Shown here piece by piece: positions 18,097-64,000 of a DNA stretch of 64,000 nt; position 1 is the first letter of the stretch; each line of letters opens with the position of its first letter. The stretch is from Longimicrobiales bacterium (GTDB lineage: Bacteria; Gemmatimonadota; Gemmatimonadetes; Longimicrobiales; Gaopeijiaceae): positions 1,920,001 through 1,984,000 of the forward strand of contig CBDBCF010000001.1 in assembly GCA_965202985.1 (NCBI GenBank), written 5' to 3'. The notes beneath the pieces were generated by a model. That model ran no database searches, was not told where the DNA came from, and was given only the letters and a program-made list of their open reading frames with translations. The position numbers were made by a program, and so were the translations under genes.

Positions 18097-18404
18097 TTCC
18101 GAGTACCTTTTCTTCGGAAAGGATCCGCTTTCGGGATGAGGGGCTAGCTACCAAGTGTTGCGCCGACGCCAACCGCGAGTCAAGCACGGCGTAGCTGTGG
18201 GCGATGCTCGAGGCTGACAGTGGATCGAGCCGTGTCGGTCGGCCGACCGTCCCGCACCACCTTCTGTCGACCACAAGACGGCGGAAACCAACCCCAGGGA
18301 ACTCCAAAGAGTTCTCTACCTTGATCGCCCCTGCGGTTTCCTCTTATCCTTCGTCATCGCGGGATTCCTCCTGCGCGCCGACCCAGAGCCAGAAAAGCAG
18401 ACGC

Positions 18405-19823: not shown

Positions 19824-19897
19824 AGTAGTGCATCATTCGGAAGTTGTCCTTATCCAGGCGATAGCTTCCTTTGTCAACACATGTCTTAGGCTAGCGC

Positions 19898-20100
19898 TTA
19901 CGTGGTCGCCTTGCGGGAACGCCGACCGATCTTGGCCTCTTGCATTCGCGCCGTCACCAGCGACGGCGGCATCGGCCGCTCGAGCGTTCCGGCCAGCGTG
20001 CCGCTGGGCGACACGAGCTTGATCCGGTAGCCGGCAGAGTCCACGACGACGATCCGTCCGTCGTCCAAGACGCCGGCGAGCAAAGGCGATTCGTAGGCTT
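19898..20100 (-). pseudogene. fragment of a beta-propeller-type exported protein
   Basis: AYESPLLAGVLDDGRIVVVDSAGYRIKLVSPSGTLAGTLERP resembles one propeller blade and the neighbouring gene. No full-length ORF. Confidence 0.45.
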
Positions 20101-20348
20101 GCTGACCGCCGCGCACTCGAAGACCGAACCTTGTGTCGCTGGTCGCAGGCGTCAGTGTGGGACTTGGCGGAGACGCCGACCGGCCTTGGGGAGGCTAACT
20201 TTGACCTGGACCTGGTCGCAAGTCAACGCCAGAAATCTGCCCTCGGGCGACGCTAGTGCTCCGGGGGACCGGACATTAAGCGAAGGTCGCGTCCCCGGAT
20301 CGCCCGCATATCCCCCGAAATCGCTCCCCCGAACAGGAAGGACCTCGG

Positions 20349-21596
20349 ATGTCGCCTCCCGACATGGCCGCCACGGAACCGCGTGCTTCCAGCCCCGTCG
20401 CCGCCGGGGAGCGCATCGTGGCGCTGGACGTGTTGCGGGGCGTCGCCGTGCTGGGGATCCTTCTCGTGAACGTCAGGGCGTTCGCCATGGTGTCCGCGGC
20501 CTACGGGAACCCTACCGCCAACGACGGTCTGGAGGGCGCGGGGCTCTGGGTGTGGGCCGCGGTGCACGTGTTCGCCGACACCAAGTTCATCTCGATCTTC
20601 TCGGTGCTCTTCGGCGCCGGCATGGCGATGATGGCGGACCGGGCGGCCCAGCGGCGCGCGAGCGGAGCCGGCATCCACTACCGACGCCAGCTTTGGCTGC
20701 TCGTCTTCGGGCTGGCCCACGCCCACCTGATCTGGTTCGGCGACATCCTGGTGGCCTACGCCCTGTGCGGCTGCCTGCTGTACCCGCTGCGGAACCTGCG
20801 TCCCTGCGCGGCGCTGATCCTGGGCGGGTGCTGGACCGCCGTCGTGGTCCCGCTGTGGCTGGCGGTCGCGGCTTCGGTTCCGTACTGGTCCCCGGAGGAG
20901 CGGGCGGCGCAGGAGGCGGACTGGTCCCCTTCGCCGGAAGCGATGAACGCCGAGATCGCGGCATTTCGCGGGGGCTGGCTGGAGCAGATGCCTTTTCGCG
21001 TCGAAGGCGCCTTGGAGCTGGAGACGATCGTGTTCCTGGTCTACTTCCTGTGGCGCGCGGGGGGACTGATGCTGGTGGGCATGGGGCTGTACCGGCTGGG
21101 GGTGCTGGCGGCGGCTCGTTCGGCTCCGTTCTACAGGCGAATGGCGGCGGTCGGGCTGGCGGCCGGCCTCCCGGTGATCGCGGCGGGGATGGCGTACAAC
21201 TTGAGCGGCGGCTTCGCGTGGGAGCGGTCGATGTTCCAGGGAACGCTGTTCAACTACGTCGGGTCCGTGGGCGTCTTCCTGGCATACATGGGGCTGGTCA
21301 TGCTGGGCGTCAAGGCGGGCCGCTTCCCGCGTGTGCAGCGACGGTTGGCCGCCACGGGACGAATGGCCCTGACCAACTACATCGCCCAGAGCGTGCTCTG
21401 CACCTTCGTCTTCTACGGCCACGGGCTGGGACTCTTCGAGCAGGTGGGGGCGGTGGGGCAGATCGGCGTGGTGCTGGCCGCGTGGGCGGTGCAGCTGGCG
21501 TGGTCGCCCTGGTGGCTGCGCCGGTTCCGGTTCGGGCCGCTGGAATGGCTGTGGCGGATGCTGGTCTACATGAAGCGGCAACCGATGAAGGCGTAG
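20349..21596 (+). CDS. DUF418 (YeiB-like) membrane protein
   Basis: ERIVALDVLRGVAVLGIL, GDILVAYA, GRMALTNYIAQS and FGPLEWLWR. Confidence 0.9.
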   Translation: MSPPDMAATEPRASSPVAAGERIVALDVLRGVAVLGILLVNVRAFAMVSAAYGNPTANDGLEGAGLWVWAAVHVFADTKFISIFSVLFGAGMAMMADRAAQRRASGAGIHYRRQLWLLVFGLAHAHLIWFGDILVAYALCGCLLYPLRNLRPCAALILGGCWTAVVVPLWLAVAASVPYWSPEERAAQEADWSPSPEAMNAEIAAFRGGWLEQMPFRVEGALELETIVFLVYFLWRAGGLMLVGMGLYRLGVLAAARSAPFYRRMAAVGLAAGLPVIAAGMAYNLSGGFAWERSMFQGTLFNYVGSVGVFLAYMGLVMLGVKAGRFPRVQRRLAATGRMALTNYIAQSVLCTFVFYGHGLGLFEQVGAVGQIGVVLAAWAVQLAWSPWWLRRFRFGPLEWLWRMLVYMKRQPMKA

Positions 21597-26572: not shown

Positions 26573-26747
26573 AGTGATGCTATGCATCAACGACCATGAG
26601 TTTCACCACTAGGCTGACCAAGCGTCATTCTTCTTCGGCAAGATCCACGCGGCTGCCAAGAGCTGCTCCGGGGTCAACCCGGATCGGTCGATGTGGCTGG
26701 CGAATTCGTGTGTCGCCGAGCTGGCGGAATCCGTTTCGACCGACTAG

Positions 26748-28275
26748 CAGCCCGTGGATAAACGGGTTTGGCGCGTGCGCGACGGAACTTGGCGGGACAC
26801 GGGCGTTTACCGGGCTCTCGACGGCGCGAACGCGCGGAATTCGCGGAATTGGGCTTGAAGCGGCCCGAGGAGGCGCTCGAGCGGCCCGAGAGCGGCCGAT
26901 GGGCGGCAAAATCGGCGCAAAACGGAGGAGGAGGCGCCCGTCGCGCAGGAATCGAGCACAGCTTGCGCTGCGGCGGGGCGGCCCTGCAGGCCCCGAGGCG
27001 TGCCGACGCCGAAGCGCCTTCGCATGAGCAGTCCGAGGTTGAAGGCGGCGACGTGAATCAGCATCCGCTTGCGGATGTCCTCGTGGCCGCGAACGTGCAC
27101 GCGGCGAAGCCCGCCCGTCTCCAGCAGGTGCGCGAACGAGCGCTCGAGCTTCTCGCCCCGCATCCTCAGCAGCGCCTTGCCGCGCTCGCCCCGAATCCGC
27201 CGCCGGTTCGCGTAGACCGGCTTCTGGGCTTCCTTGTTCTGCTTCCAGCTCCGCCGACCGCGCTCGGGCTCGCTCACGTAGCCGCGCAGCCCCCGGTCCT
27301 CCAACTCCGTCATCGTCCTGTTCGAGTGATAGCCTTTGTCGCACACCACTTCCGCCGCCCCAGCACCCAGCTCCGCCAGCCGCCGCTCCGCCTCGTCCAG
27401 CGTCTCCGGCAGCGACGCCGCGTCGCCCCCGTCCGTCGTCTGCACCGTCACGCCCACCACGGCCCCCGACTCCAGGTCCACCGCCTGCTCCAGCTTGTGA
27501 CCAAGCCGCGTGCGCCCGTCCTTCATCTTCGTGATCCGCGCCTCCGGGTCCCCCGGATGCACCCACTCCGCGTTCGACCCCTTCTTCGGACGCTTCCGGT
27601 CCAGCTTCGCCAACTCCGCGCGCGTCGGCGTCTCGATCCCCGACGACCGCGCCAGCTCCCGCAGCCACGCCTCGTAGCCCGTGCCCGCGTCCCGACGCAC
27701 GATCGAGCGCATCGCCGCGTTCGCCTCCAAAGTCGTCGAGTCCACGCCCAGCGTCCCGCCCCCCAGCAGCCCCGAGTCGTCCACCAGCCGCAGCACGCGC
27801 GCGAACACCGCCACGTGCGCCTCCACGCTCAGCCGCTTGCGCGTCTTCGACAGGCTCGAATGGTCCGGCGGGTTCCTCGTCAGCTCGTACCCCAGGAACG
27901 CCCGCACCGAAAACGAGTCCCTGCACCGCCAGGCGATGCCCCGCTCCGACGAGATGCCCTCCAAGTACCCCACCATCAGCGCCCGGAAGTACACACTCGG
28001 AGGAACTCCCGGCCGGCCCACGTTGCCCGCGTAGAACTCGGCGCACACCTCCTCCGCGAACTCGTCGAACCCGTCCTCCCGCAACAGCTTGTCCAGCGCG
28101 CGGTAGACGGGTGCTCGGTCACGCTGATCTCGCTGGTCGCCACGAACAGCGCCTCCTGGCGCACGCTCGGACGCTTGCCCAACGCCATCGCCGTCCTCCT
28201 TCCAGGGAATCGTCGCTTCCCTCCAAGCTAACCCCTATCCCCAACGCCGACCGGAAGGACTTTATCCACGGGCTG
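26748..28275 (-). mobile_element. IS5/IS1182-like insertion sequence with 15-bp terminal IRs and CTAG target duplication
   Basis: CTAG|cagcccgtggataaa at 26744-26762 and tttatccacgggctg|CTAG at 28261-28279 flank a DDE transposase. Confidence 0.9.
26807..28188 (-). pseudogene. DDE transposase, frameshifted near 28107
   Basis: The N-terminus (ATG 28188, AGGAGG RBS) is in a different frame from the body (PDHSSLS, VDSTTLEANA, DKGY, ERSFA). The second copy has the extra base (HPFYRALDKLL). Confidence 0.8.
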
Positions 28276-28387
28276 CTAGGCCACCTTCGGTGCCTGTTTC
28301 CAAGTATTCGCCGACGGCCTCGGACACGAAGGCCGTGACTTCCCGTCGGCGTGGTTGTTCAACGACCCGAAGTTCAATACTGCCCCA

Positions 28388-30184
28388 CTAAGGCCTTGCT
28401 GTCACCTTTTTGATTTCCGAAGACACTCGTTTCGCGCGCGCCTTGATGTACTGGCTGTATCGCTTTTCGATCGTGCCTTTCGTCCACATCGCATCGTAAG
28501 GCACCAAGTGACTCTCAACCCGATCCCGCAGGTCGTCCTCTGAAACTCCTCCCTCCAAGATGTCATCAAAGTAATCGCGAGGATCAGACTTCGCGAGCCT
28601 TCGATTCGTGAATCGACTGAGGAGCACTCCGTTCAGTCCATGCTGGATGCGTGTACGGTCGATTCCTTCCCTCTTGAGAATGTCCCGAGGAAAGACATGA
28701 TGCCTGTCCAGGCGCCTCTTATCTTCCAGTTCTCGAATACGCTCGGCATCAAACTTCTGTCCTGTGGCCCAGTCAAGTGGTCCACGACGGGAGACCAACG
28801 CTGCCACTGCCCGTCCAAGTCTCCCACTCCCAATCCATGGGAGTGATTCCACAAGCTGATCTGTTCCGGGTACGGGATGGACGTCTTCATTGAACACCTC
28901 GGGCAACAAACCTACAACTCTGCCGTGTTCGCTGATCTCCGCAATGCATCGGCAAAGATCGGTGTAGTCACCGAGCAGGCGATCGTTGGCTTGTGCTTCA
29001 TGACGATTGGTGACGAGTGACCGCCAGTAGTATGCAGACATCAGCTTGTCTTGCTGATTAATCTTCAGTGGATCACGAAGCCCATTCGCCTTGCCTTGGA
29101 TGGCCGCAATGACGTGCAGAGGAGGCCAGCTCGGCAACGTCCGCATCGTCGGCGAACCCTGGCGTGCTGCAATGCGCAAAGTAGCTTCCAGATCCTTCAG
29201 CAGGTCATCTAATCCGGCGAGCCCATCATTTACTATCATAGACTCAAAGGCGTCTTCGTAGTTAGATTCCTTTGGTGCCCTCCCCGATTTGAGACAGGCT
29301 ACCCTCAGCATCCATTCGCCTACATCCGGTATCCATTCTTCCGAATCGGGTTTGAAGTAGTGTTCCATTAGATCACTGCTCCGAACCGAGTCGTGGACTT
29401 TTTCCCTCAAGTCTTCACCATACTTGCCCCTCGCCAAAGCCACAACGATGTCGAATCGCTTGATCTGCACGGACGAACTATTTGTTTCAACAAATATATC
29501 TACCGCGACGCTAGTCTTTGTGGATTTGTACAGGTTGCAGTACCATAAATGCCGATTGAACAACAATTCTTCTCTGAGATGGGTCCGAATGGCCTTGTCA
29601 AGCAAGGCGACATCCCGACTTCCACCGTTCCCCTGAGCAGTGTGGCACCAGTGCCATATCTCACCGAGCTCGGTGCCCGTTTCTTTATCCAATTGTGCCT
29701 TTCTATCAAACAGTATGTCTATGGGCACACATTTGTTATCATAAGCAAATCGTGGATCCTCAAGTCTCCTGCCGAATCCCGTTCCCGGCGAGTAGAAGGT
29801 GACACCAGCTACGTTCAGGTCCAATGTTGCTAAGTCGGGCACCTGAAGGTAGAACCGATGTCTCGGGTTAGCCTCCCCGCCAAGTGCCTTCCAAAGCGAA
29901 GTCAGGCGTTGTTGCCCGTCAAGCACCAATTCCTTTGCTCGACCCGTTTGGGTTGACATGCCGTTGAATCGCCTTGATCCAAACTGCGGTTCACGTGCGG
30001 ATTCTAGAATCAAGAACGTACCCGTCGGGCGATTCTTCATAACTGCCATGAGGTACTGTGCAGTTCGGGCCGGATTCCATACCCAGCTTCGCTGAAAATC
30101 GGGCAGCGCCAGTGTACCGTTGTCGGCCATGTCCAACCATTGGTGAATGTGTCTGCTCTTGTACTCAGCCATCTGTGCTGTCAC
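28388..30184 (-). CDS. DUF262 (ParB-like) + HNH/DUF1524-like protein, GmrSD/SspE-type nuclease
   Basis: LPDFQRSWVW, LVLDGQQRLTSL, IFVETNS, and C-terminal DRHHVFPR...NGVLL...TNRRL. GAGGAGG RBS before the GTG at 30184. Confidence 0.85.
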   Translation of the reverse strand: MTAQMAEYKSRHIHQWLDMADNGTLALPDFQRSWVWNPARTAQYLMAVMKNRPTGTFLILESAREPQFGSRRFNGMSTQTGRAKELVLDGQQRLTSLWKALGGEANPRHRFYLQVPDLATLDLNVAGVTFYSPGTGFGRRLEDPRFAYDNKCVPIDILFDRKAQLDKETGTELGEIWHWCHTAQGNGGSRDVALLDKAIRTHLREELLFNRHLWYCNLYKSTKTSVAVDIFVETNSSSVQIKRFDIVVALARGKYGEDLREKVHDSVRSSDLMEHYFKPDSEEWIPDVGEWMLRVACLKSGRAPKESNYEDAFESMIVNDGLAGLDDLLKDLEATLRIAARQGSPTMRTLPSWPPLHVIAAIQGKANGLRDPLKINQQDKLMSAYYWRSLVTNRHEAQANDRLLGDYTDLCRCIAEISEHGRVVGLLPEVFNEDVHPVPGTDQLVESLPWIGSGRLGRAVAALVSRRGPLDWATGQKFDAERIRELEDKRRLDRHHVFPRDILKREGIDRTRIQHGLNGVLLSRFTNRRLAKSDPRDYFDDILEGGVSEDDLRDRVESHLVPYDAMWTKGTIEKRYSQYIKARAKRVSSEIKKVTARP

Positions 30185-30472: not shown

Positions 30473-31210
30473 GAGCCCGTGGCGCACAGCGCACGGCGGG
30501 GGAAGCGGAGCCGGGCGTGGCGTGTTGGCGGGAGACGGTGGGGGCGCGCGCGCATGTCCGGGCGTGCGGGGCGGCTAGGTGCCGAACCGATCGGTGGGCC
30601 GTTCGGGGTGCCCGAGGGTGTGGCGAGGGCGCCGAGAGGCCGGATCCGGGTGAGAAAAGGCCGAGTTCGGGCAAGAAAAGGCGCGCAGGGCGTGCGGAGC
30701 GCTTCGTCGGGCGCACGGCCCCCCTGTTGCGGGCGGTTGGAGAACAGCGTCCGGGTTCGTCGGCGGTCGCATCGCCGGCGCTTCGCCCAAGTTCTCCTTG
30801 GCCCGTTCGAGCACTGGCTCCAAGCAGTCGGCCGGCTGGTTCGTCACCCCGTGCACCACGACGACCTGCGCGGCCTCGTCCACCCCCGGCCGCGCGTTGT
30901 ACGCCTGCACGAACCCGTGCGTTCCCAACGCATGACGTGACTCTTCGGATCCGTGAAGTTGCGCTGCGCCCCGTCCCTTCGCCACCGCCGGGTTGCCGTG
31001 GCCCGCCGCCGTTTGCTCCATGCCAGCCGCCTGCGGTCCGCAGCTTGCGCGCCCGCGTCAACCGCGTCGCCTCTTCCAGCCGCGCCTTCGCCTCCCGAAT
31101 CCGCGCCAGCCGGTCCTCGCGCCGACTCAACTTCTCCGGCAACCCGTCGGTGCCGCTCCCCTCCCCTCGCTCCGACTCGGCGCGTCCGCTGCCTCCGCCT
31201 CCGCCAGCAT
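30473..31210 (-). mobile_element. degenerate IS1182-family element (transposase remnant)
   Basis: Fragments in several frames: PEKLSRREDRLARIREAKARLE, RNFTDPKSHVM, GFVQAYNA..VDEAAQVVV. End CTAG|gagcccgtgg at 30469. Confidence 0.7.
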
Positions 31211-32961
31211 CCGCGTCACCCCGAGCCGGTGCGGTACGGACCGCGGCGACGGGTGCCGTCGAAGCTGGACCCGTACAAGGCGATCATCGACGAGCGGCTG
31301 GCGGCGTATCCGAAGCTTTCGGCGACCCGCCTATACTGGGAGGTGTGGGAGTCGGGCTATGCGGGGAGCTGCAGCCAGGTCAAGCGGTACGTGCGGGGGT
31401 TCGTCCTCGTGCCGAGCCGGAGCCGGAGCCGGAGCAGCGGTTCGAGACGCCGCCGAGCTATCAGGGCCAGGTCGACTTTCGCGGACCTCGTGCTGCCATG
31501 GGGCAGGCGGTACGCGCTGGCAGTGGTGCTGGGCTACTTGCGGATGCTGTGGCTCCGGTACTACGAGCGGCAGACGATGGAGACGGTGGTCCGGGGTCTG
31601 GAGGGTGCGTTCGCGTTTTTCGGAGGCGTGCCCGCCAAGCTGCTTTTCGACCAGATGCGGGCGGTCCGCTGCTGGAGAATCGGAGTTCCTGCGGTTCAGC
31701 GCGCACTGGGGCCTCCGCATCCGGGCGTGCAGGGCAGGTCGGGCGAAAACGAAGGGGAAGGTCGAGCGTCCGCGTTCACGGCACGTTGAAGCAGCGTCCC
31801 GTGATCCGCTTCGAGGACGAGCGGGGCTGGCTCCTGCCGCTGGCGCAACGGCCCTATCGCTCGGTCGTCCCGGTCGCGGCTCGGCAGGCGGCACCGGAGT
31901 CGGGCGGTCCCGTCGTGGCGGTGGAGCGGCGGTCTCTGGCCGAGTACGCCAAGACCGCGGAGGCCGCGTCGCGAAAGGCGGTGTCGCGCAGAGACCGGAT
32001 CGAGGAGCTGCTGGCGGACTTGAAGATGCCGGGCGCGCTCGAAGCGCTTGCCGACGTGCTGGCCCGCGTCGACGGCGGCGCAGCGACGGCGGCCGAAGCG
32101 ATCGAGGAGCTGCTGGCGGCGCAGATCGCGTTGCGCAACAGCCGTCGGCTGGCGACGGCGATGCGGTCGAGCCGTTTGCCGTCGGTCAAGACGCTCGAGG
32201 AGTACGACTTCGCGTTCCAGCCGTCGGTGAAGCGGGAGCAGATCGTGTCGCTGCACGAACTGGGGTTCGTGGCACAAAAGGAGAATGTCGTGTTCATGGG
32301 CCCGCCGGGCGTGGGCAAGACGCACCTGGCGATCAGCTTGGCCGTCGCGGCGGCGCAGGGCGGTCGGCGTATCTACTACGGCACGCGCTCCGATCTCGTG
32401 GAGTCGCTCGAGGAGGCTCGGGCGGCCGGCTGCCTCAAGCAGCGGCTCAAGACGCTGACGCACCCGTCGCTGCTGGGGTCGACGAGATCGGCTACTTGCC
32501 GGTGAGCCGGAGCGCGGCGACGCTGTTCTTCCAGCTGATCGCCCGGCGCTACGAGCACGCCTCGACGGTGGTCACCTCCAACAAGGGGTTCGAGGAGTGG
32601 GGACGGATCCTGGGCGACGAAGTGATGGCGGCTGCACTGCTGGACCGGTTGCTGCACCGATGCCACATCGTCAACATCCGAGGCAACAGCTGGCGGACCC
32701 GGCACCATGCCGCCGAGCTGGCCAAGGCGCTGGAAGGTCGGCCGTCGGACGACGGCCCCGGAGACGAAGGGAGCGGATCGTGACCAGGAATTGGGGCCAG
32801 GGCCTCGTCGCCACCAAGAACGCCGTCGCGACCTGGACGATCACGCCGGCACTCCACGTCGCGGGAACCCGCCCCCGGTCGCTCCGCTCCCTACGTTCGG
32901 GTCCCCATGAGTGTGCAATTTTCGACGGCCAAGAAAGTGCAATCTTCGACGGTTGCTGACA
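31210..32961 (+). mobile_element. degenerate IS21-family element (istA truncated/frameshifted, istB frameshifted)
   Basis: IstA-like SKLDPYKAIIDERL, RFETPP..QGQVDF, KGKVER. IstB-like KTLEEYDF, GPPGVGKT, DEIGY, TSNKGF, LLDRLLH. Terminal repeats gtgcaattttcgacgg/gtgcaatcttcgacgg and an end at ...TGACA 32961. Confidence 0.85.
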
Positions 32962-33664
32962 ACCCACTCCGCGTTCGACCCTTCTTCGGACGCTTCCCGT
33001 CCAGCTTCGCCAACTCCGCGCGCGTCGGCGTCTCGATCCCCGACGACCGCGCCAACTCTCGCAACCACGCCTCGTAGCCCGTGCCCCCGTCCCGACGCAC
33101 GATCGAACGCATCGCCGCGTCCGCCTCCAGCGTCGTTGAGTCCACGCCCAACGTCCCGACCCCCAGCAGCCCTAAATCGTCCAGCAGCCTCAGCACGCGG
33201 CCGAACGCCGCGACGTGTGCCTCCACGCTCGACCGCTTGCGCGTCTTCGACAGGCTCGAATGGTCCGGCGCGGGTTCTTCGTCAGCTCGTACCCCAGGAA
33301 CGCGCGCAGCGAAAACGAGTCCCTGCAACGCCAGGCGATGCCTCGCTCCGACGAGATGCCCTCCAAGTACCCCACCATCAGCCCCGGGAAGTACACCCCG
33401 GAGGATTCCTCGGCCGGCCCCCGTTGCCCGCGCAGAACTCCGCGCACACCTCCTCCTCGAACTTGTCGAAGCTGTCCTCCCGCAACAGCTTGTCCAGCGC
33501 CCGATAGAACGGATGCTCGGTCACGCCGAGCTCGCTCGTCGCCACGACCAGCGCCTGCTGGTGCACGCTCGGACGCTCGCCTACCGTCCTTCGAGGGGAT
33601 CGTTCCGTCACTCCAATCTAATCCCAACCAATCGCCGGCTCGTAAGGACTTTATCCACGGGCTG
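32962..33664 (-). mobile_element. truncated second copy of the 26748..28275 IS
   Basis: Diverged copy of ~27560-28275 with the same terminal tttatccacgggctg|CTAG. Cut off by the IS21 end; several frameshifts. Confidence 0.88.
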
Positions 33665-34537
33665 CTAGTCGATAGCACGTATGATCAGATCCATAATATC
33701 TTCCAACTCCTTACGGTTGAGCACACTCAGCTCCCGAACCGCCTGAACCGCACTCAAATTTCTGCACGCACGAACAAGCCACTGAGCATTCGCTAGTCGT
33801 TGATTGCCACTCAACTGGATGGTCTCGGCGAGTCGTGTAACAAAGGCCTCTCTAATCTCATGCGATCCCATCACCGAATTTCGTGATACAATCATAACGA
33901 CCAACTTTTCCCAGTATGTCTTGCTCAACCGGACTAAGTCTCGAACCTTCTTCGTCAGATCGGCGTCGTTTCGACCTACCTGAACCGCAAGGCGCTCTCT
34001 CCACCAAGTTCGGGCAAATGGGCAATCCACGTAAACCGTTCGATTGCCTCTCGCTTCCGGCAGACCACTAAGCCGCCGGAGAGCCGTCCGAACGCAATCA
34101 TCCATCATCTTCGCACGCTTCTTCCCGGCCCTCCGAAGCGCCCGGTCAATTCGTTCGGCACCACCGGCGTACGAGCCATTGGCCGCCAGGTAGGCCGCCT
34201 TGATCCGGCCCTGCCGAATGTGATGACAGGTGATGTTGCCCCAGAAGGACGATCGGCATGCGATCCGCGGAGTGAGCATCTCCCATACGTCGTAGAGCAT
34301 CAGCTGGGTGTCCACGGGAGGCTCCCGGTATTCCGTTTCCGTAAGGGGATGTGGACAGAGGGAAACGGTCCCCTTGCCGGTCACCGGTATACGCCCGATA
34401 AACTCCAGAAATTGGTGGTCTTCCTGCAAAGCATACAAGAATTCTTCTTGAAGCTCGCCACCCTTCTCTCGCAGAAGATCCCTTCGGAGCCTCGAGAACG
34501 CTGCATTGTCAAGCTCCTTGTTTCCCACTTTAGCCAT
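33665..34537 (-). CDS. hypothetical protein (LTP.IA...FW / ARTWW motifs, reminiscent of DUF6339)
   Basis: Clean 290-aa lower-GC ORF in the operon. The family resemblance is recalled and unverified. Confidence 0.7.
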   Translation of the reverse strand: MAKVGNKELDNAAFSRLRRDLLREKGGELQEEFLYALQEDHQFLEFIGRIPVTGKGTVSLCPHPLTETEYREPPVDTQLMLYDVWEMLTPRIACRSSFWGNITCHHIRQGRIKAAYLAANGSYAGGAERIDRALRRAGKKRAKMMDDCVRTALRRLSGLPEARGNRTVYVDCPFARTWWRERLAVQVGRNDADLTKKVRDLVRLSKTYWEKLVVMIVSRNSVMGSHEIREAFVTRLAETIQLSGNQRLANAQWLVRACRNLSAVQAVRELSVLNRKELEDIMDLIIRAID

Positions 34538-34540
34538 TAA

Positions 34541-35386
34541 CTACATTTCTCCGTTGTCGCTACTGTCAAGCTGCTGATGTGGGTACATGGCCGTCGCTAC
34601 CTCTTCAGGCCGGAACTCATCGTCCATCCATCTAGGAAGGTCTTCATCGTCGAGGTATTCTGCCAGTGCAACAAGATGTCGATCCGTCTGCCAGCGCTCT
34701 TCTTCGCGAAAATCACGCTGAAGTAACGCAAAGCAGGCCGTCACTATGTGCGTCATGATATGATTCCGAATATGGCTTCCCGTACTGTATCGTAAAAAAC
34801 GATGCAAATCGGTGCTTAAGGTCACTACAAACCGAAATGGTTGGCTTTCTGCGTCCACCATAAACGTACCATCTGACAAGTCTCCATCCTGTTTGAGATA
34901 CAACAGATGCAATACCGTAGGCTTCATCCGCACGACAGGTCCGATCGCTATACGGGAGCCTTTGTCGATTTTCACCGTTCGACCCGTCCACGAAGGGTGA
35001 ACATCATCCCGATCGGAACACAACGTCAGCGTTCGTGACTGAAATGCTATCACCATTGGAGTAAGCAACGGCGATTCTCCCATGTCGTCAGCACTCCAGG
35101 ACACCTCCTGTGTAGCCTCCGCCGAGAAGTGTACTCTCCGGTAGGACGACACAGGCGATGACACTGCGCAACAATATCTAGCGGCTCCTTCCCTAACTAA
35201 TCGTCGAACCAATTCAGCGTTCTGCATATCATGCTGCAACAAGAACGACGACCGTTCCTTTCCTGGTCTGAAGTCGATAGCATACTGGCCACTCGGATAC
35301 GACATGTTCCCTGCTTCTAGAACGGGATACCGTCTGGATTTCGTTGCGTTCGCCTCGGAATTCGCGAGCGCAACGATCTGAGTCAT
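34541..35386 (-). CDS. hypothetical protein (N-terminal YPVL motif)
   Basis: 281-aa ORF, ATGA-coupled to the GHKL gene, with a GGAGGAGG RBS. Confidence 0.75.
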   Translation of the reverse strand: MTQIVALANSEANATKSRRYPVLEAGNMSYPSGQYAIDFRPGKERSSFLLQHDMQNAELVRRLVREGAARYCCAVSSPVSSYRRVHFSAEATQEVSWSADDMGESPLLTPMVIAFQSRTLTLCSDRDDVHPSWTGRTVKIDKGSRIAIGPVVRMKPTVLHLLYLKQDGDLSDGTFMVDAESQPFRFVVTLSTDLHRFLRYSTGSHIRNHIMTHIVTACFALLQRDFREEERWQTDRHLVALAEYLDDEDLPRWMDDEFRPEEVATAMYPHQQLDSSDNGEM

Positions 35387-37329
35387 CGACCTCCTCCTTC
35401 TTTGATTCCCGGCGCTACCTCAACCACGAGACTGGCGCTAGGCGCCTGGACGGCGTCAAAATATCCTGGTAGCGAGTAGCTTGCTTCCACCGTGACCTTT
35501 TGGCCTTTGGCAAGGGAGCCCAGTTGGACGCCAACGACTTTGCCGTTCTCCATCAGCAGCACGCAGCCGTCCGCGGCCGTACCGTCTACAAGAACATCGC
35601 ACAATTCTACGTCGGCCTTGGCGTCGCGAACTATACGGTCGCATGTTGAATCGATATTCTCGTCCACAAACAGGCGCAACTCCGCGGATCTACACTGGCG
35701 ATGGCATGTGACCTCAATGCGTCGTCGGTCAACTGACACGGGCACCGTGACGGCGCTGAATAGGGACTCGACGCTCCGCCTCCTGCTTCGACCCGATGGA
35801 TCTACCGTGCTATTACTAGGCTCGCGTCTTCTGGATCGCCCTTGCTGTGACCGAACAGGGTTCCTCTCAGGGCTCCTTTGGCCAACAGCCACTGGTGTGG
35901 CCCAAGAGTCACTGCCACCCCCAAAGTCAAGCACGAGAATGTCGTCCGGACTAAAGGCAGTGTCGGAGACTTCATTGGTATTGTCCAGCAGCCAGTCACG
36001 TAACTCTCCAAAGGCTTTTTTGATGGCCACTCTATCCTCTTTGCCTAAATTTTTGACATTGAGCTTGTCGTGAAGGGGGCCTTCGGCCTCTCTGACTAGG
36101 CGATACAGTTCTGTCGTATCGTCATCGAGCAACAAAAGCGCGTGAAATGGTCGACGATCTCGAAATTTGTAATAAAATCCTGGAATGCCGCCCTTCGGCG
36201 TCTTGTCGTCGGTGATCCACATTCCGTTTCTGAGAAGATCGACCCTAGGACTCCCGGATTGCTTCTGGAGCAGCCGTATTCGCAACGAACCGTGCGACGT
36301 CTCGACCGGAAAATAATCTTTCCCTCGTGTGAGAGCGGTGTAGCTGTCATAGGCTTTCGAACCGCTCAGAAACGCCTTCGATCGTGTTTTCTGTCGGTTG
36401 TCGGTTAGCACGCCACCAATATTGCTGTGGTCAAGGGTCCGAATCCCCGAATCGAGGTGGGTGGCATCGCCTGGGTCCTCGACATGTACAACAAGCTGTC
36501 GTTCGGCGATGGCTTGGAAGAAATTGCACGCCGCAGCCTCCGACACCATGTCCCAGAGAGATCGTGACTCTCGAAAGTTGTTGAAGGAAGGAATGATGAC
36601 GACGCTCCCATAATCCGCATCAGCCAGCAAATCGCTTAGTTGATCACGGATGACCTTAGGTATGTTTGAGCCACGAGCGCAATCGAACAGCTTGCCATTA
36701 CGACCGTTGCGAAACCCCTTGATCAGAAACCCGTCGCCGGAACAGACGTGTGTGCTTGCCATATCGTGTGAGGCATGTGAAGCAATGACCGCGTGACCGG
36801 AACCGATTGTCTCGCCTGTATTGAGGAGGCCTCCATAGAGCAGATAACGTAAGTCCGACGCAGGGATAGCAACAGAATGTCCGTTTCCGTACGTGCCGGA
36901 GGCACCGCCACCCTTGGCGCTTACCCCGTCGCTGAGGAGGGCGTTCATGCGTCGGTCGTCAAGCCCTATACCGTTGTCAAAGATCGACAGTACGCTCTGC
37001 GTCTCCTGTCGCAGCGCATGATCAATCGTCCTTATCACTGAAGAGGCTGTTGGAGCCAGACTGCCACCTGCCATTTCCTCCTGCATCTTAACGGCAGCGT
37101 CAAACGCCCCCTCGTAAGCTCTAATGCCCGGAATGTCGTCCGTGGCCACCGTGGCGAGCCGAAAGCGGACTATAGCTTTGTCCCGGCCGGCCTCGCAGGC
37201 TGCGTCGAACGAATTCTGGACAAGCTCCCGTACAACCGCTGCCGGGCGAAGGTCGTCAAACGCCGCAATCCCGGCTGGGTTGAATCCCTTAATGTCGCCG
37301 GCGGGGCCAAACCGCAGACGAACTGCCAC
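35383..37329 (-). CDS. GHKL (HSP90/MORC/MutL-like) ATPase domain protein
   Basis: VVRELVQNSFDA (N box), IFDNGIG (G1), SAKGGGASGTYGNG (G2), followed by a long uncharacterised C-terminus. Confidence 0.8.
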   Translation of the reverse strand: MAVRLRFGPAGDIKGFNPAGIAAFDDLRPAAVVRELVQNSFDAACEAGRDKAIVRFRLATVATDDIPGIRAYEGAFDAAVKMQEEMAGGSLAPTASSVIRTIDHALRQETQSVLSIFDNGIGLDDRRMNALLSDGVSAKGGGASGTYGNGHSVAIPASDLRYLLYGGLLNTGETIGSGHAVIASHASHDMASTHVCSGDGFLIKGFRNGRNGKLFDCARGSNIPKVIRDQLSDLLADADYGSVVIIPSFNNFRESRSLWDMVSEAAACNFFQAIAERQLVVHVEDPGDATHLDSGIRTLDHSNIGGVLTDNRQKTRSKAFLSGSKAYDSYTALTRGKDYFPVETSHGSLRIRLLQKQSGSPRVDLLRNGMWITDDKTPKGGIPGFYYKFRDRRPFHALLLLDDDTTELYRLVREAEGPLHDKLNVKNLGKEDRVAIKKAFGELRDWLLDNTNEVSDTAFSPDDILVLDFGGGSDSWATPVAVGQRSPERNPVRSQQGRSRRREPSNSTVDPSGRSRRRSVESLFSAVTVPVSVDRRRIEVTCHRQCRSAELRLFVDENIDSTCDRIVRDAKADVELCDVLVDGTAADGCVLLMENGKVVGVQLGSLAKGQKVTVEASYSLPGYFDAVQAPSASLVVEVAPGIKEGGGR

Positions 37330-37332: not shown

Positions 37333-38502
37333 CTATGCCCCCACCAAGGTGCTAGCCATCGCAACGGCATCTGTCAACACGGCCGATGCTGTGGCAACAT
37401 CGTCTTCGGTAGTGAAGCGCCCCAAGCTGATTCGTATTCCCGTGGACGCCCGTTCGTAGTCGCAGCCAAGCGCCATGAGTACCCTAGAGGGCTTTGAGGC
37501 TACGGACGTGCAGGCGGCACCAGTCGAAATGGCGATCCTGTGGGAAACAGTGGAGAGTAGCTCCGTACCCCGAAGGCCGGGGAACCCGACATTGAGGTTG
37601 CCGGCTATGCGATGATGTCTGTGGCCGAACAGTCTCATGTCTGGACGACTGTCGCAAAGCTGGTCCGCCAACCAGCGAGAGTAACGAGACATGCGAGCAA
37701 CGTCTGACTGCCACTCGATTGCTGCCAGTTCGCTGGCCTTGCCTAGTCCCACGGCCAGCGGAACAGGAACGGTGCCAGGTCGAAGGCCTCGTTCCTGACC
37801 GCCACCGGCCAGAATGGGAGCGATCGGAGTTCCAGAACGCACGTACAGAGCCCCGATGCCCTTGGGACCGTACATCTTGTGTCCTGAAATACTGAGTAAA
37901 TCCACATTCCAGGCGTCGACGTCAATCTCCATCCGGCCCGCGGCCTGCGTTGCGTCACTGTGGAACAGTACGCCGGCTCGCCGGCACATTTTTCCAATCT
38001 GTTCGACTTCTTGAAGCACGCCAATCTCATTGTTGGCCGCCATCACCGACACGATCAGCACTTGGTCGTCCAAAGCCCGCTCGAGGTCGTCCATGTCGAG
38101 GATGCCGTCACGGTCCACTGGTAGAACGACCGAATCGATGTTGCGTTGATCGAGATGAGCGACCGTCTCCAGCACGGCGGAATGCTCCGTGGCAACAGTG
38201 ACGACCTTACGACGCTGAGGGTACCGATTTGCGTTGACGACTCCCTGGAGGGCGATGTTGCAGGACTCGGTTGCCCCAGCCGTCAACACAATCTCTTCGT
38301 CGTCTGCATTGACAAATCCCGCGACGAGTGCGCGCGCCTTCTCAACTTCGCCGAAAGCATCCCATCCGTAGCCGTGTCCGTTTGAATGCGGATTACCGTA
38401 ACGAGTGCGAAAGAAAGGTAGCATGGCCTCGAGGACACGCGGATCGAGCGGCGTAGTCGCCTGGTTGTCGAGGTAGATCGGATGGCTCGGCACGCTACTC
38501 AC
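37333..38502 (-). CDS. cysteine desulfurase (IscS/NifS/DndA/SspA-like)
   Basis: IYLDNQATTP, HSDATQAAG, SGHKMYGPKG (PLP Lys) and STGAACTS (catalytic Cys). GTG at 38502 overlaps the upstream stop. Confidence 0.93.
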   Translation of the reverse strand: MSSVPSHPIYLDNQATTPLDPRVLEAMLPFFRTRYGNPHSNGHGYGWDAFGEVEKARALVAGFVNADDEEIVLTAGATESCNIALQGVVNANRYPQRRKVVTVATEHSAVLETVAHLDQRNIDSVVLPVDRDGILDMDDLERALDDQVLIVSVMAANNEIGVLQEVEQIGKMCRRAGVLFHSDATQAAGRMEIDVDAWNVDLLSISGHKMYGPKGIGALYVRSGTPIAPILAGGGQERGLRPGTVPVPLAVGLGKASELAAIEWQSDVARMSRYSRWLADQLCDSRPDMRLFGHRHHRIAGNLNVGFPGLRGTELLSTVSHRIAISTGAACTSVASKPSRVLMALGCDYERASTGIRISLGRFTTEDDVATASAVLTDAVAMASTLVGA

Positions 38503-39875
38503 TCCGTGCAGTCGCAGGGCAGGAGGCTCTCCGAGTACTTGGGAAGAACCTTTCCGTTGGACTCCTCCAGCTTCTCGTACGTCATCCCTTTCGCGCCGAA
38601 GAAGCCGATCGTCGTACTCTCGGGGTTCCCGGTGATCTTCCGGCCCTCCTCTTTCAGATCTCGGCCATACCTTTTCTCCATGCGTACCCACCAACGGATA
38701 TCGGACGGCGTGTCTCGTAGCGAACCGAAATCGGCTACGTCTTCTTCCGCAGCTGAATGCATGCGTTCATGCACATCTTGGAGATTGGACATCCCCTTCA
38801 GGAAGCAGTACACGCAGTTGGAAAGGCTTCCTTCGCCTGGTAACGACAGGTTCCATTGCTGCTGGTCCCAAAACGCGTTTACGTCGTCGCGAGCTATTGC
38901 CATGTCTGCCAGGGGCATGTAAACATGCTCGCCTTCGTAGCCGGAGGAACCCGGACCAGAATTGCGGGCTGAGACGCGGTTGACACGCTTTTCTTCATCC
39001 GCCCGAAGGCCGACGAACGCGACATATTCGACACCGCCGCCTCCGAACGAAACGCGATTTCCGTAGGCCTTGCCGTCTAGCAAGGGGTTGGCGAAAGGGA
39101 CCCACGCCGGACAGTAGTCTCTGTACCGCTGCGTAGGACGGACGTGCGGACGACCGCGGGAATAGGCACGCTTCTTCAGGAATATCTTTCTCGGAACCTC
39201 GCCATTGTTATTCTTGTGCCGCTTGTACAATGTGTCATCGTCCAGACGGGACTCGGTCCCATAGTGTCCAAGACGAGGGATCGCATCCGTACCAGCTAGC
39301 CAATCGCGAAGGAAATGTCGTGTGGCTTCAAGTTTCATGCTTTGAGTGCAGATGCGGCTAAAGACGTTCGGAACATAGCCGGAATAAGATATCAGCTCCT
39401 CAAAGACCTCTCCGCGCCAGTGAAAGCCATTCGGGTTGTCTTCGGAACGGGGCTGGTCATTGACTAGGCGGTAGGCTGGGAGACGAGTCCATTCCCCGTG
39501 TCGAGCGTCTTCGTACGTTTGGTATTCGATCCAGAAGAAAGGTATCCCGTACCGATTCGAAGCGCGCATGCAGTCTTGAACGAATCGATACGTGTCGGTG
39601 TGCTCAGCTGAAGTATTATTGAAGACGATCACGTCACCGCGGCTCGGCTGAAGAATCTTGTTCTCCAACAACACAAACAGCAACATGCCGCTAGAGCGCC
39701 CGCCCGAGAACTTCACGACGTGCGGCAAGTCCAGATGTTTCTTGGCACGGTAGCGGAAGCGGTACTCTTTGGTGGGATCGTGCCGTGGGGGCGGCTTCCG
39801 CAACTTGCCGGAGACGACGAGCCGTGGGACGGCCTGGAGCGTGAGCTGCGAATCGCTGCCGTTCCGCTCTCGCAT
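38499..39875 (-). CDS. PP-loop adenine nucleotide alpha-hydrolase / PAPS-reductase-like, Cys-rich (putative Fe-S) protein
   Basis: VKFSGGRSSG (PP-loop variant), FNNTSAEH, RICTQSMK, VGLRADEEKR, SNCVYCFLK and a C-terminal PCDC. ATG at 39875 with GAGG upstream. Confidence 0.8.
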   Translation of the reverse strand: MRERNGSDSQLTLQAVPRLVVSGKLRKPPPRHDPTKEYRFRYRAKKHLDLPHVVKFSGGRSSGMLLFVLLENKILQPSRGDVIVFNNTSAEHTDTYRFVQDCMRASNRYGIPFFWIEYQTYEDARHGEWTRLPAYRLVNDQPRSEDNPNGFHWRGEVFEELISYSGYVPNVFSRICTQSMKLEATRHFLRDWLAGTDAIPRLGHYGTESRLDDDTLYKRHKNNNGEVPRKIFLKKRAYSRGRPHVRPTQRYRDYCPAWVPFANPLLDGKAYGNRVSFGGGGVEYVAFVGLRADEEKRVNRVSARNSGPGSSGYEGEHVYMPLADMAIARDDVNAFWDQQQWNLSLPGEGSLSNCVYCFLKGMSNLQDVHERMHSAAEEDVADFGSLRDTPSDIRWWVRMEKRYGRDLKEEGRKITGNPESTTIGFFGAKGMTYEKLEESNGKVLPKYSESLLPCDCTE

Positions 39876-40091
39876 TAGTCGGCGACCTCGGGTAGGCGTG
39901 GTGGAGAGAAGAGTTCCGCTGCTGGGTCTTTCATGGCGTGCATGGTCACTCGTAGTACGATGGCACGGCGCTCCGTTCGTGGCAAGTGGCGCGAGTGGTA
40001 CCGGTCCTACCGAAGGCCGACCTTCCAAGCTCCCCTTCCAGCGGCTAGCTTCCGAGGTCCCCGCCATCTTCTCCCCGCCGCCAAGTTGCCC

Positions 40092-41297
40092 GTGCCGCCC
40101 ACCCACCCCGGCGTCCCCCTTCCCCGGTCCGCGCCCTTGGACCCCGCCGAGACGGCCCGCTACGCCCGGCACTTGGTGCTGCCCGAGGTGGGCCGCGACG
40201 GCCAGGAGCGCCTCAAGGCCGCCCGCGTGCTGCTGGTGGGGGCCGGCGGGCTGGGGTCGCCGGCGGGACTGTACTTGGCGGCGGCGGGGGTCGGCACGCT
40301 GGGCGTGGTGGACCCGGACGTGGTGGACGCCACCAACCTGCAGCGCCAGATCCTGCACGGCACCTCGGACCTGGGCGCGCCCAAGGTCGATTCCGCCAGG
40401 CGAAGGCTGGCCGAGGCGAACCCGCACGTGGCCGTCGAGACGCTGGCCGCCAAGCTGACGGCGGACAACGCCCTGGGCGTCGTGGCGGAGTACGACGTGG
40501 TGGTGGACGGGAGCGACAACTTCCCCACGCGGTACTTGGTCAACGACGCCTGCGTGCTTTCCGGCAAGCCCAACGTGTACGGGTCGGTCTACCGGTGGGA
40601 GGGGCAGCTGTCGGTCTTCGGCCTGGAAGGGGGACCTTGCTACCGCTGTCTGTTCAGGGAGCCGCCCCCGCCGGGCGCGGTCCCCAACTGCGCGGAGGCC
40701 GGCGTCTTCGGCGCGCTGCCGGGGGTGATCGGCGCGGCACAGGCCATGGAGACGATCAAGCTGGTCCTGGGCGCCGGCGACGTGCTGGCGGGCCGCCTCC
40801 AGCTCTTCGACGCGCTGGCGTATCGGTGGCGGGAGGTGGAGGTGCGCCGGGACCCCGCGTGCCCCGCGTGCGGCGATCGTCCCACCGTGACGGAGCTCGT
40901 CGACTACGACGCGTTCTGCGGCGCGGCCGGCAACGGAGCTGGCGCGAGCGCGGGCGCAGCCGACGACGAAGACCAAGTCGGCCGCGTCCACCCCGGCGAG
41001 CTTGCGGGCGTCATGTCCGGCGAACCCCGGCCCTTCCTCTTGGACGTGAGGGAGCCGTTGGAGTGGAGGGCGATGAACCTGCGGTCGCTGGGCGCGGTGC
41101 TGGTGCCCAAGGGAGAGATCCCCGAACGCCTGCAGGAAATCCCCAAGGACCGCCCGGTGGTGGTCTACTGCCACAGCGGCGTGCGCAGTCTGGACGTGGC
41201 GCGGACCCTGGCCGCCGCAGGCTACGATCACGTGCGGAACCTGGAAGGCGGGATCGCGGCGGTGCTGGAAGAGACGCCCCAGATGGTCGGTTCGTGA
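40092..41297 (+). CDS. moeB: MoeB/ThiF E1-like adenylyltransferase with C-terminal rhodanese (MoeZ-type)
   Basis: RYARHL, GAGGLGS, TNLQRQ, DGSDNF, CYRC, CPAC, and rhodanese YCHSGVRS. Confidence 0.9.
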   Translation: MPPTHPGVPLPRSAPLDPAETARYARHLVLPEVGRDGQERLKAARVLLVGAGGLGSPAGLYLAAAGVGTLGVVDPDVVDATNLQRQILHGTSDLGAPKVDSARRRLAEANPHVAVETLAAKLTADNALGVVAEYDVVVDGSDNFPTRYLVNDACVLSGKPNVYGSVYRWEGQLSVFGLEGGPCYRCLFREPPPPGAVPNCAEAGVFGALPGVIGAAQAMETIKLVLGAGDVLAGRLQLFDALAYRWREVEVRRDPACPACGDRPTVTELVDYDAFCGAAGNGAGASAGAADDEDQVGRVHPGELAGVMSGEPRPFLLDVREPLEWRAMNLRSLGAVLVPKGEIPERLQEIPKDRPVVVYCHSGVRSLDVARTLAAAGYDHVRNLEGGIAAVLEETPQMVGS

Positions 41298-41662
41298 CCG
41301 ACGGCCCGCGCAGCCCGGCCGGCTCGCATCCCGGCATGCCGGCCGCCGACGCCCCCTGGCGCCGGACGCTGGTGCGGCTGGCCCAAGCGATCGACAACCG
41401 CCGCGAGGTGCGGCTGCTCTACGGCTCCAGCCTGAGCGTTCGCTTGGTGCTGCCCCACGCCCTGGGCGTCAGCCGGTCCGGGAACCCGGCCTTGCTGGCC
41501 TGGCAGCAAGGAGGCGGCGCGAAGGAGGCCGAGACCGGCTGGCGGCAGTTCAAGTTGGACAAGATCGCCGCCGTGGACGTGTCGGAATCGACGTTCCGCG
41601 CCCCGGCGCCGGGCTACGACCCCAAGAACCCGGGCCTGTTCGGAGTCGTCAAAGCGATCTGA
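41294..41662 (+). CDS. stand-alone WYL-domain-like protein
   Basis: AIDNRREVRLLY...RLVLPHALG...LLAWQ...GWRQFKLDKI...GYDP. Confidence 0.65.
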   Translation: MTDGPRSPAGSHPGMPAADAPWRRTLVRLAQAIDNRREVRLLYGSSLSVRLVLPHALGVSRSGNPALLAWQQGGGAKEAETGWRQFKLDKIAAVDVSESTFRAPAPGYDPKNPGLFGVVKAI

Positions 41663-61913: not shown

Positions 61914-62040
61914 AGCGGATCGCAGGCCTCGCAGCGATCAGGGGCTGAGCCCGCTGGTCCCGCACATGGCCCGGCGGCCTGCGCTCTAGTGCCGGGCACC
62001 GTAGATCCCTGTCGCTAGCCAACGGAGAGGAGCAACCAAG

Positions 62041-63105: not shown

Positions 63106-63781
63106 GTGATGTCGTCGAGTTGTTTGGATATCCGACTAACGACTCCGCACGCGTGCCGATTGCCTGCATCTCTTGTCGCGGCATGAGCCCGGAAACGAAA
63201 TCCATGTTGTATCGGAAATGACCGTACCTGGAGGCAGTGTCGATTATGTTCTTGTCTCTGCTCGAAATGGACAGGTAGCAGATTTCGTCGGCATCGAGCT
63301 CCAGACCTTGGACACTACCGGCACGGTGTGGCCTGCGCGACAACACTTTCTTGGTAGTGTGGGCGTTGGCGAAGTTCGAGAAGACGATGTTTGCCGTCGG
63401 GGCTACGGGATGAATTGGAAGATGACAGCCAAGACGATCTTGATCCAGCTCCATCACAAGCTCCGAACGTTCGAAGCGATTGATCAGACACTCGTGCTTG
63501 TTGTTCAGGATCACTTGTTGCAATACCTCCGCAGGGAATTCAACTTCTCTCACGTCGCTGACGTACGGCAGATCGATTCGATGCATTTTCATGCCTATGC
63601 AATGAATCTCGGAGCCGACGGCAGTTTTGAGCTACAACTGGACATGCGAGCAAGCACGGATTCGGAGGGCATTGCCACATGCCTTGGACTTAGAGCAGAA
63701 CCAGACGTTGGATTGGAGAAGATCGTCCGACAGCTTGAGGATAGACTGTCCGACCAGACGCTGTTTCGTCTGGATTCATGA
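63102..63781 (+). pseudogene. NotI/EagI-like restriction endonuclease, N-terminally deleted/frameshifted
   Basis: GTG 63102 (VSDVVELFG) is out of frame with ...DCLHLLSRHEPGNE..GSVDYVL..IELQTLDTTG..MNWKMT..QLHHK. Confidence 0.65.
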
Positions 63782-63782
63782 G

Positions 63783-64000
63783 ATGACGGCCGTGGCGGAG
63801 TCGGGTAGCGCGAAGAAGAACATCCCGCCGGTGTTGGTGCTGAGCACGGGACGGTGCGGTTCCACCATGCTGTCCGATATTCTGAACACGCACCCGCACG
63901 TGCTCAGTTTGTCCGAGACCTTCACGACGGTGGGCCAGGGGCCGTTCCGTCGCCGCTTGTGCAGTGGAAGGCACATCTGGCGGGCTCTAAGCCGCCAGTC
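63783..64000 (+). CDS. sulfotransferase family protein (runs off window end)
   Basis: Not in ORF track. Reads MTAVAES...VLVLSTGRCGSTMLSDILNTHPHVLSLSE, the 5'-PSB loop pattern of PAPS-dependent sulfotransferases. Confidence 0.7.
   Translation, partial: MTAVAESGSAKKNIPPVLVLSTGRCGSTMLSDILNTHPHVLSLSETFTTVGQGPFRRRLCSGRHIWRALSRQ

Follow-up and report, generated by a model that had tools for sequence, protein, structure and literature searches.

We focus here on a gene pair in a 64,000-nucleotide window of the genome of a Longimicrobiales bacterium (contig CBDBCF010000001.1, positions 1,920,001 to 1,984,000), in which a PP-loop enzyme akin to 3′-phosphoadenosine 5′-phosphosulfate (PAPS) reductases is followed by a cysteine desulfurase at the head of a five-gene operon. 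The two are probably a DNA-sulfur-marking enzyme and its sulfur donor within an undescribed anti-virus gene set. The explanation that we favour, with moderate confidence, is a DNA phosphorothioation (PT) defence system driven by a GHKL ATPase, with the desulfurase as donor and the PP-loop enzyme as writer. A sulfur mark on the DNA backbone is predicted and is more likely than one on a base; PT is favoured over other marks because of an apparent exchange of a DNA methylase for the sulfur writer and because of PT-type effectors beside the cassette. The genes concerned, in window positions and lengths in amino acids (aa), are the following.

38499..39875, minus strand: PP-loop enzyme of PAPS-reductase-like type, 458 aa; belongs to the long, trio-linked clade within the NinC/phrog_424 group and is probably a writer that inserts sulfur with an Fe-S cluster
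37333..38493, minus strand: cysteine desulfurase of the IscS/DndA/SspA type, 386 aa; a GTG at 38502 is an alternative start; K206 and C328 intact
35383..37329, minus strand: MORC-like GHKL ATPase, PDC-M33A, 648 aa; E35/N39/D42, D118-G120-G122, G148/G150 and ExxxH (E416/H420)
34541..35386, minus strand: PDC-M33B, 281 aa, no Pfam family; ATGA overlap with the ATPase gene
33665..34537, minus strand: PDC-M33C, DUF6339-like, 290 aa; conserved W99, R150, R163 and W179
30760..33668, no strand assigned: high-GC insertion-sequence (IS) debris; one IS fragment at 32962-33668, with five other copies at 88-89%
28388..30184, minus strand: DUF262 (DGQQR) and HNH-type (DRHHVFP) GmrSD/BrxU/SspE-like nuclease, ~598 aa; own AGGAGG

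The earlier note on this DNA had treated the PP-loop and desulfurase genes as a unit; they are indeed adjacent, and the true unit is the five-gene operon, which runs on to 33665. After the desulfurase, the GHKL ATPase follows at a 3-nt gap, PDC-M33B at the ATGA overlap and PDC-M33C at another 3-nt gap, and we refer to these three genes as the trio. The island is low in GC, with a third-position GC content (GC3) of 0.54-0.68 against ~0.9 in two host genes. The IS fragment abuts the PDC-M33C stop and thereby parts the DUF262 nuclease gene from the operon, so that in this genome the effector is cut off by intervening IS debris; among the contigs of four runs, no joint spanning the debris, as an IS-free allele would give, was found. 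A full IS copy at 26744-28280, with four other copies at 98-99%, lies just past the DUF262 stop, and the DUF262 gene is thus bracketed by related IS sequences.

The constant partner of the enzyme is the GHKL trio. The GHKL gene adjoins the enzyme in 15 of 18 GTDB loci, the other three being broken or at contig ends, and the two lie within 4.5 kb of each other in 71 loci from GTDB, metagenome and genome searches, counted after removal of 11 near-duplicates. These linked loci show three gene orders (enzyme-desulfurase-trio, enzyme-trio and trio-enzyme) and are spread over several phyla; the trio is absent from all 80 of the 80 viral loci that carry a short form of the enzyme. Across 43 loci, distances in the enzyme tree go together with those in the trio trees (rho 0.71-0.87, against a shuffled maximum of 0.24), a correlation that kinship alone would produce in part, and 14 of the 25 supported splits of the enzyme tree are common to the GHKL tree. 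In a gammaproteobacterial sample whose centre genome was chosen as a carrier, the family is roughly as frequent as SspD or DndC, occurring in 6 of 300 genomes, compared with 6 of 250 for SspD and 4 of 201 for DndC. A second intact cassette is present in this same genome (G000:C1:1751629-1756507; L002, L185), with an enzyme 41% identical in a 458-aa open frame and with the trio, and it has no desulfurase. Both types of cassette are also found together in G061, and G246 (L208) has them as a tandem followed by extra PDC-M33C-like genes. The four-gene cassette also stands alone between housekeeping genes, aroA/hisD in L014 (9941-14907) and rimP/ribD in L044 (6717-11152), with no effector in the fetched DNA.

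The motifs that the earlier note had read in the PP-loop enzyme are all present in the 458-aa open reading frame (ORF): SGGRSS (57-62), RICT..K (174-181), SNCVYCFLK (352-360) and a C-terminal PCDCTE. All 126 aligned homologues have C176, C354 and C357, and 122 of them also keep C454/C456 (the other four have gaps there); among the 119 rows that cover position 5 of the PP-loop, the residue at that position is always S or T and in no case D. The note had called this pattern atypical, which holds against CysH and DndC and fails against SspD (SGG[RK]DS, RWCT, SGCxFC, terminal CxxC) and lambda NinC (SGGRTS, FCT, GNCIFC), whose motifs are alike; the cysteine pattern is that of SspD and is therefore not atypical for PT writers. 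The three cluster ligands described for DndC correspond to the same cysteine order (PMC12193691). The best library match is phrog_424 (1.4e-30), followed by SspD (1e-9), BrxP (1e-4, over 66 residues only) and DndC (0.04). In profile-profile comparison, the enzyme matches NinC-like proteins at E 2.6e-59 (hhalign probability 100, 266 columns; 22 sequences, whose short viral rows were picked for likeness to the query), SspD at probability 99.1 and E 1.2e-18 (seven sequences), DndC at 9e-8 (five) and CysH at a probability of 6.6, with a profile of only three sequences. C176 and C354/C357 pair with SspD cysteines in the alignment to the SspD profile, and the terminal cysteine pair is matched to that of SspD by position only.

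Searches with established models agree with this placement. Among 47 family members, SspD models are matched by 44, BrxP by 21 and DndC by 6, and the NCBIfam matches at E<=0.01 include no tRNA-thiolase model (TtcA/TtuA/NcsA); CysH models in NCBIfam gave no match. The scores for PF01507 (16.1 bits against a cut-off of 22.5) and for the DndC model TIGR03183 (12 against 290.4) fall below threshold. The enzyme has neither the C-terminal ECGLH nor the CC pair, where CysH controls have RECGLH/KECGLH, and it lacks the DndC cysteine dyad, which DndC controls carry as GECP...CG ahead of FGCWTC. No cys, isc or suf genes adjoin the pair, as the earlier note had said, and the whole genome (92% complete) has no PF01507 match at E<=0.01. 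Its view that the enzyme is no assimilatory reductase and belongs to a phage- or mobile-element-borne PAPS-reductase-like group is thus borne out: judged by sequence, the enzyme is not CysH and belongs with the phage NinC-like homologues of PAPS reductases, next to SspD. Quick trees, which hold no BrxP, TdpC or TtuA rows and in which long branches meet, place the long clade (Shimodaira-Hasegawa-like approximate likelihood ratio test, SH-aLRT, 99) inside phage NinC-like proteins (92-95) and these next to SspD (90-95), with DndC, CysH and CysD outside.

A confident predicted model of the enzyme (predicted local distance difference score, pLDDT, 94.5) has the PAPS-reductase fold (Z 10-11.2), with tRNA thiolases as near ties (NcsA Z 9.8, TtuA Z 9.2) and no Foldseek match at E<=0.001. 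None of 21FY, TdpC, DndC and SspD was listed in the fold searches, so the fold gives no ranking of PT writers. An insert of ~80 residues in the enzyme is missing from SspD and NinC. Searched against the PDB, the NinC-like and SspD profiles each score best (2e-7 and 3e-13) with chain C of 21FY, 'PptA', in an entry that also contains E. coli IscS; that the name stands for phosphorothioation is a guess of ours. Three homologues (P0209, P0182 and P0179), which group with gammaproteobacterial copies, are fused to C5 methyltransferase sequence, the full domain being present in P0209 (4e-70). These fusions point to DNA, in support of the earlier note's view of DNA as the likely substrate. Stand-alone copies of the enzyme without the trio occur in L267 (8748-10076), in a region like an integrative and conjugative element (ICE; integrase, topoisomerase III and ParB-like genes, read from translations), and in prophage-like regions of L266 and L269 (VapE-like, Macro; portal, methylase); a plasmid search gave one weak match to the enzyme.

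The desulfurase matches PF00266 at 1e-79 and the PADLOC models for DndA and SspA both at 1e-137, and all 23 cassette copies compared retain its pyridoxal phosphate lysine K206 and catalytic C328. Two GTG codons could serve as its start: one overlaps the PP-loop stop (GTGA, -4), and the other comes 5 nt after that stop, behind GGAG. Of 27 homologous loci looked at, near-duplicates among them, 23 had their junction scored, and in 21 of these the start falls at -4 to +8 nt from the stop. The earlier note had described the pair as translationally coupled; the tight junction is kept and the enzyme intact, and the coupling itself we infer from junction geometry. The desulfurase is, as the note held, dedicated: it is 47-60% identical to others of the same gene order and 39-46% to those of other orders, compared with 35% to the genome's own IscS-like protein. 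It is found in 24 of the 71 enzyme-linked loci (16 of 39 with 2.5-kb flanks) and is hence optional, as it likewise is in Dnd, Ssp and BREX type 4 (PMC12914056; PMC12839542, 56%).

The sulfur writer appears to have taken over the slot of a DNA methylase in the GHKL cassette. Searches with the PDC-M33A profile, which are independent of the enzyme, gave matches in 15 of 301 genomes of the bacterium's own phylum, 11 of 300 gammaproteobacteria and 6 of 301 alphaproteobacteria; in the own phylum the enzyme is carried by 13 of 17 fetched relative loci, and in proteobacteria it is nowhere near the GHKL gene in 10 of 17 genomes. A C5 methyltransferase is nearby in none of the 71 enzyme-linked loci (0/39 with 2.5-kb flanks), compared with 9 of 15 enzyme-less GHKL loci (a set that leaves out one 1.7-kb contig), where it is no more than 4.5 kb away, frequently as the immediate neighbour and accompanied by Vsr, EcoRII-like or Z1 genes; the remaining enzyme-less loci are two trio loci and four distant GHKL loci. 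On three plasmids, the trio has dcm-vsr or adenine methyltransferase genes as neighbours. In the GHKL tree, the enzyme-linked rows form one clade of 39 (SH-aLRT 99), whose sister is an enzyme-less clade of ten (98), seven with C5 and two with adenine methyltransferases, and eight distant rows lie outside. Some of the distant rows have methyltransferases too, and for this reason the methylase state may be the older one. Swaps from methylase to PT are reported in BREX type 4 (PMC12839542) and in CxC/Dnd systems (PMC10853773). In L297 (3046-12148), a C5 methyltransferase, a Z1 protein, a DUF4420 nuclease and a distant trio form one run, like restriction-modification operons of MORC type.

Within the trio, PADLOC matches identify PDC-M33A (5e-29) and PDC-M33B (3e-10), and PDC-M33C is identified via 7 of 61 family members and a profile match (E 8e-10). 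The GHKL ATPase has all GHKL motifs, its weak best PDB matches being MORC3/4, and an ExxxH motif in the S5 domain is present in 56 of 57 GHKL rows; such a motif is reported for paraMORC2 (PMC2292703), the likeness here being to the motif as described and not to those sequences. The G1 box reads DNG in the enzyme-linked clade and DxT in methylase-type cassettes. For PDC-M33B, Atlas returned unnamed clusters only; for PDC-M33C, the PDB sequence search was empty and Atlas held no usable match, and we put it forward purely by inference as a candidate DNA-recognition subunit. A distant GHKL subfamily of the same phylum (G000:C1:2746802-2748790 = L222, with L217, L220 and L221) lacks both the sulfur enzyme and a C5 methyltransferase within 19 kb.

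Two kinds of effector lie beside the cassette. The helicase PbeA (~1e-150 when full length) is co-directional behind it in 7 of 71 loci (L021, L022, L023, L031, L034, L051 and L211), PbeC follows PbeA in the five loci that reach far enough, together with an ORF of 73-77 aa, and in L211 pbeA starts within 2 nt of the PDC-M33C stop; L035 has a convergent copy of PbeA, and none is present in the enzyme-less loci. PbeABCD reportedly depends on PT itself and not on touching the Dnd proteins, and of 553 pbeAC pairs, 320 are solitary, without dnd genes (PMC6459918). A DUF262 gene lies within 4.5 kb in 13 of the 71 loci. The DUF262 nuclease of this genome is 38-41% identical to cassette-flanking genes in L261, L210, L206 and L036, and 25-32% to genes inside or behind the operon in L003, L026, L040, L265 and L219, and it is probably the cognate effector of the operon. 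Known effectors of the DUF262-DUF1524 type comprise the PT-linked SspE and the independent BrxU (PMC12707154; 10.1101/2024.01.29.577857). Between cassette and pbeA, six loci (L021 at 6935-9037, L022, L023, L031, L034 and L051) encode a protein of 660-760 aa in which an RNA polymerase alpha-CTD-like domain is combined with a sigma70 region 4 domain; a homologue is encoded at G000:C1:2631962. Two cassettes have a DndB-like gene and type IV-like HNH nucleases as neighbours (L024, 16464-17723 and 18549-19544; L031, 1122-2141).

Elsewhere in the window, a host-like moeB-rhodanese gene and a small stand-alone WYL gene (39933-41662) are divergent from the island. As a possible sulfur partner, the moeB-rhodanese gene (39933-41297) was dismissed on account of its GC3 of 0.92, against 0.54-0.68 in the island, and because no other fetched locus has a copy of it. 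Two further low-GC stretches (~0.57-0.63) lie at 17000-21000 and 62000-64000.

The anatomy, conservation, gene linkage and clade structure of the cassette are directly established, and its chemistry, site and defence role are predicted. Cysteine desulfurases draw sulfur from cysteine, and the present one would, as its family suggests, supply sulfur so obtained. By analogy with DndC, SspD and Tdp, C176/C354/C357 of the PP-loop enzyme would hold a [4Fe-4S] cluster, the enzyme would adenylate a DNA phosphate with ATP, and sulfur relayed via the cluster and the terminal CxC would be swapped into the backbone phosphate. The GHKL ATPase and PDC-M33B/C may find, clamp or bend the site, in the role of DndD/E or SspB/C, and an exchangeable effector, the DUF262-HNH nuclease here and PbeABCD-like proteins elsewhere, would then attack unmarked phage DNA. 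As to origin, a phage NinC-type enzyme may have displaced the C5 methyltransferase of a GHKL restriction-modification cassette.

Several points weigh against such a GHKL-driven PT system. The described PT systems, as these sources present them, have a P-loop ATPase and not GHKL in all cases but Tdp (PMC12914056; PMC12707154). The PP-loop aspartate of CysH, DndC and SspD is replaced by S or T, the GHKL tree contradicts 8 of the 25 supported splits of the enzyme tree, and approximately unbiased (AU) tests do not reject the long clade joined to CysH (p 0.073), DndC (0.148) or SspD (0.245), so that the phylogeny proposed in the earlier note sets the clade apart from CysH in the quick trees and not formally. 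The family profile itself has no direct match to PptA, direct PDB sequence searches with family profiles gave nothing meaningful, and no paper on the function of PptA was found. The 71 loci are related to one another, stem largely from marine or sponge-associated sources, and were in most cases found by searching with the enzyme itself. As for the effectors, PbeB and PbeD are without a profile match and identified by size and position only, and in many loci the fetched DNA contains neither a DUF262 gene nor Pbe genes; because so many pbeAC pairs are solitary, and GmrSD and BrxU often act alone, adjacency may reflect defence-island clustering, and the Pbe-bearing genomes may have dnd or ssp genes elsewhere.

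Among other explanations, it is rather unlikely that the enzyme puts sulfur or AMP on a target other than genomic DNA (a partner protein, a nucleotide signal or incoming DNA), with a desulfurase that mainly matures the Fe-S cluster and the trio as the defence core. The trio does occur without the enzyme (the 15 loci and three plasmids), the desulfurase is optional, many loci have no visible effector, the enzyme stands alone in the ICE-like and prophage-like regions, and protein-modifying PP-loop enzymes exist in defence (a Cap9-CdnD entry is among the fold matches); mutual exclusion with DNA methyltransferases and fusion to them, the SspD cysteine skeleton and the PT-type effectors next door weigh against it. 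The earlier note had leaned towards thiolation of a base, and a TtcA/TtuA/NcsA-like enzyme that displaced a cytosine methyltransferase by marking the same base, for instance cytosine, would suit its slot and its three fusions, the closeness of NcsA and TtuA in fold score to PAPS reductases, the altered PP-loop and the insert. We nevertheless consider this unlikely and do not follow the note here: the nearest characterised profile, and the one with which the cysteine skeleton aligns, is that of the backbone PT writer SspD, the 47 members match no tRNA-thiolase model, several loci run into the PT-dependent PbeA/PbeC, and the swaps in BREX type 4 and CxC/Dnd came without base chemistry (PMC12839542; PMC10853773).

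A pair that is merely a prophage-derived anti-restriction passenger, set beside PDC-M33 by defence-island clustering and with no joint function, would account for the origin among phage proteins, the low-GC island with IS debris and the stand-alone copies, and it is made improbable by overlapping or near-zero junctions, by linkage in three gene orders and several phyla, by the single enzyme-linked GHKL clade and by the correlated trees. Least probable by far is a divergent CysH or adenosine 5′-phosphosulfate reductase for sulfate assimilation: the PAPS-reductase fold, a genome with no other PF01507 match and the unrejected AU test would allow it, against which stand the PF01507 score under its cut-off, the low CysH profile probability, the missing ECGLH and CC pair, the want of cys genes nearby and the defence context. 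Azaca was considered and rejected, the island genes having no Zac match.

The GHKL-driven PT system, if true, would be the third exchange of methylase and sulfur writer on one scaffold, could account for some of the solitary pbeAC pairs (320 of 553) and would tie abundant phage 'PAPS reductase' genes to DNA modification, all within a cassette of five to six genes and ~8 kb. The described PT systems number four, and the surveys made to find others demanded a P-loop ATPase neighbour (PMC12914056); a GHKL-based class would thus be missed by design. The literature searched, with subscription papers and the supplements of the PADLOC preprint outside the search, yielded no description of the cassette, PDC-M33 or DUF6339. 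More tentatively, and at slightly less than even odds, the cassette could define a fifth, GHKL/MORC-driven class of DNA sulfur modification, derived from a phage NinC-type enzyme in a methyltransferase slot, which would provide the marks for some 'solitary' Pbe/SspE-like effectors and a function for lambda NinC and its phage relatives, perhaps with new chemistry, given the aspartate-less PP-loop and the C5-methyltransferase fusions.

In comparison with known systems, the cassette would work like Ssp or BREX type 4 but, judged by the partners that define those systems, falls in none of Dnd, Ssp and BREX type 4. It shares with SspABCD-SspE, a system of single-strand DNA phosphorothioation, the cysteine order of the writer SspD, the optional desulfurase and the DUF262-HNH type of effector. 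It has, on the other hand, a GHKL ATPase and two unrelated proteins in place of SspB/SspC, for which the six island genes gave no match, and its writer is ~180 aa longer than SspD, with S for D in the PP-loop and a terminal CxC rather than CxxC. As in BREX type 4, where a desulfurase occurs in about half of the loci (PMC12839542; PMC12914056), a PAPS-reductase-like PT writer, there BrxP, stands in for the methyltransferase of a methylation-based system; unlike BREX type 4, the island genes include no brxC, brxZ, brxL or DUF4007, the scaffold is the GHKL trio, and the enzyme replaced is a C5 methyltransferase. With DndABCDE and PbeABCD, the cassette has in common a desulfurase joined to an Fe-S PP-loop enzyme and PbeA/PbeC after the cassette, whereas its operon is without dndD/dndE, the genes matching PDC-M33 instead, and its writer is without the DndC cysteine dyad. 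The nearest sequence group is that of phage NinC/phrog_424 and PptA, which share SGGR[ST]S, CT..LK, NCxxCxK, terminal cysteines and, through 21FY, a link to IscS; NinC/phrog_424 proteins are of 240-310 aa, whereas the trio-linked clade is of 380-480 aa, mostly cellular and operonic, and PptA is matched only via the NinC-like profile. All three trio genes match PADLOC PDC-M33ABC, and the ExxxH motif is like the one described for paraMORC2; PDC-M33ABC and paraMORC-type GHKL restriction-modification cassettes carry Dcm, Vsr, EcoRII-like or Z1 genes where the present cassette, in a separate GHKL clade, has a sulfur writer. In TdpABC, one PP-loop enzyme produces PT via an adenylated intermediate (PMC12914056). 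Overall, the components of PT systems in general, a PAPS-reductase-domain enzyme, a cysteine desulfurase and an ATPase, are all present here, the ATPase being GHKL and not P-loop.

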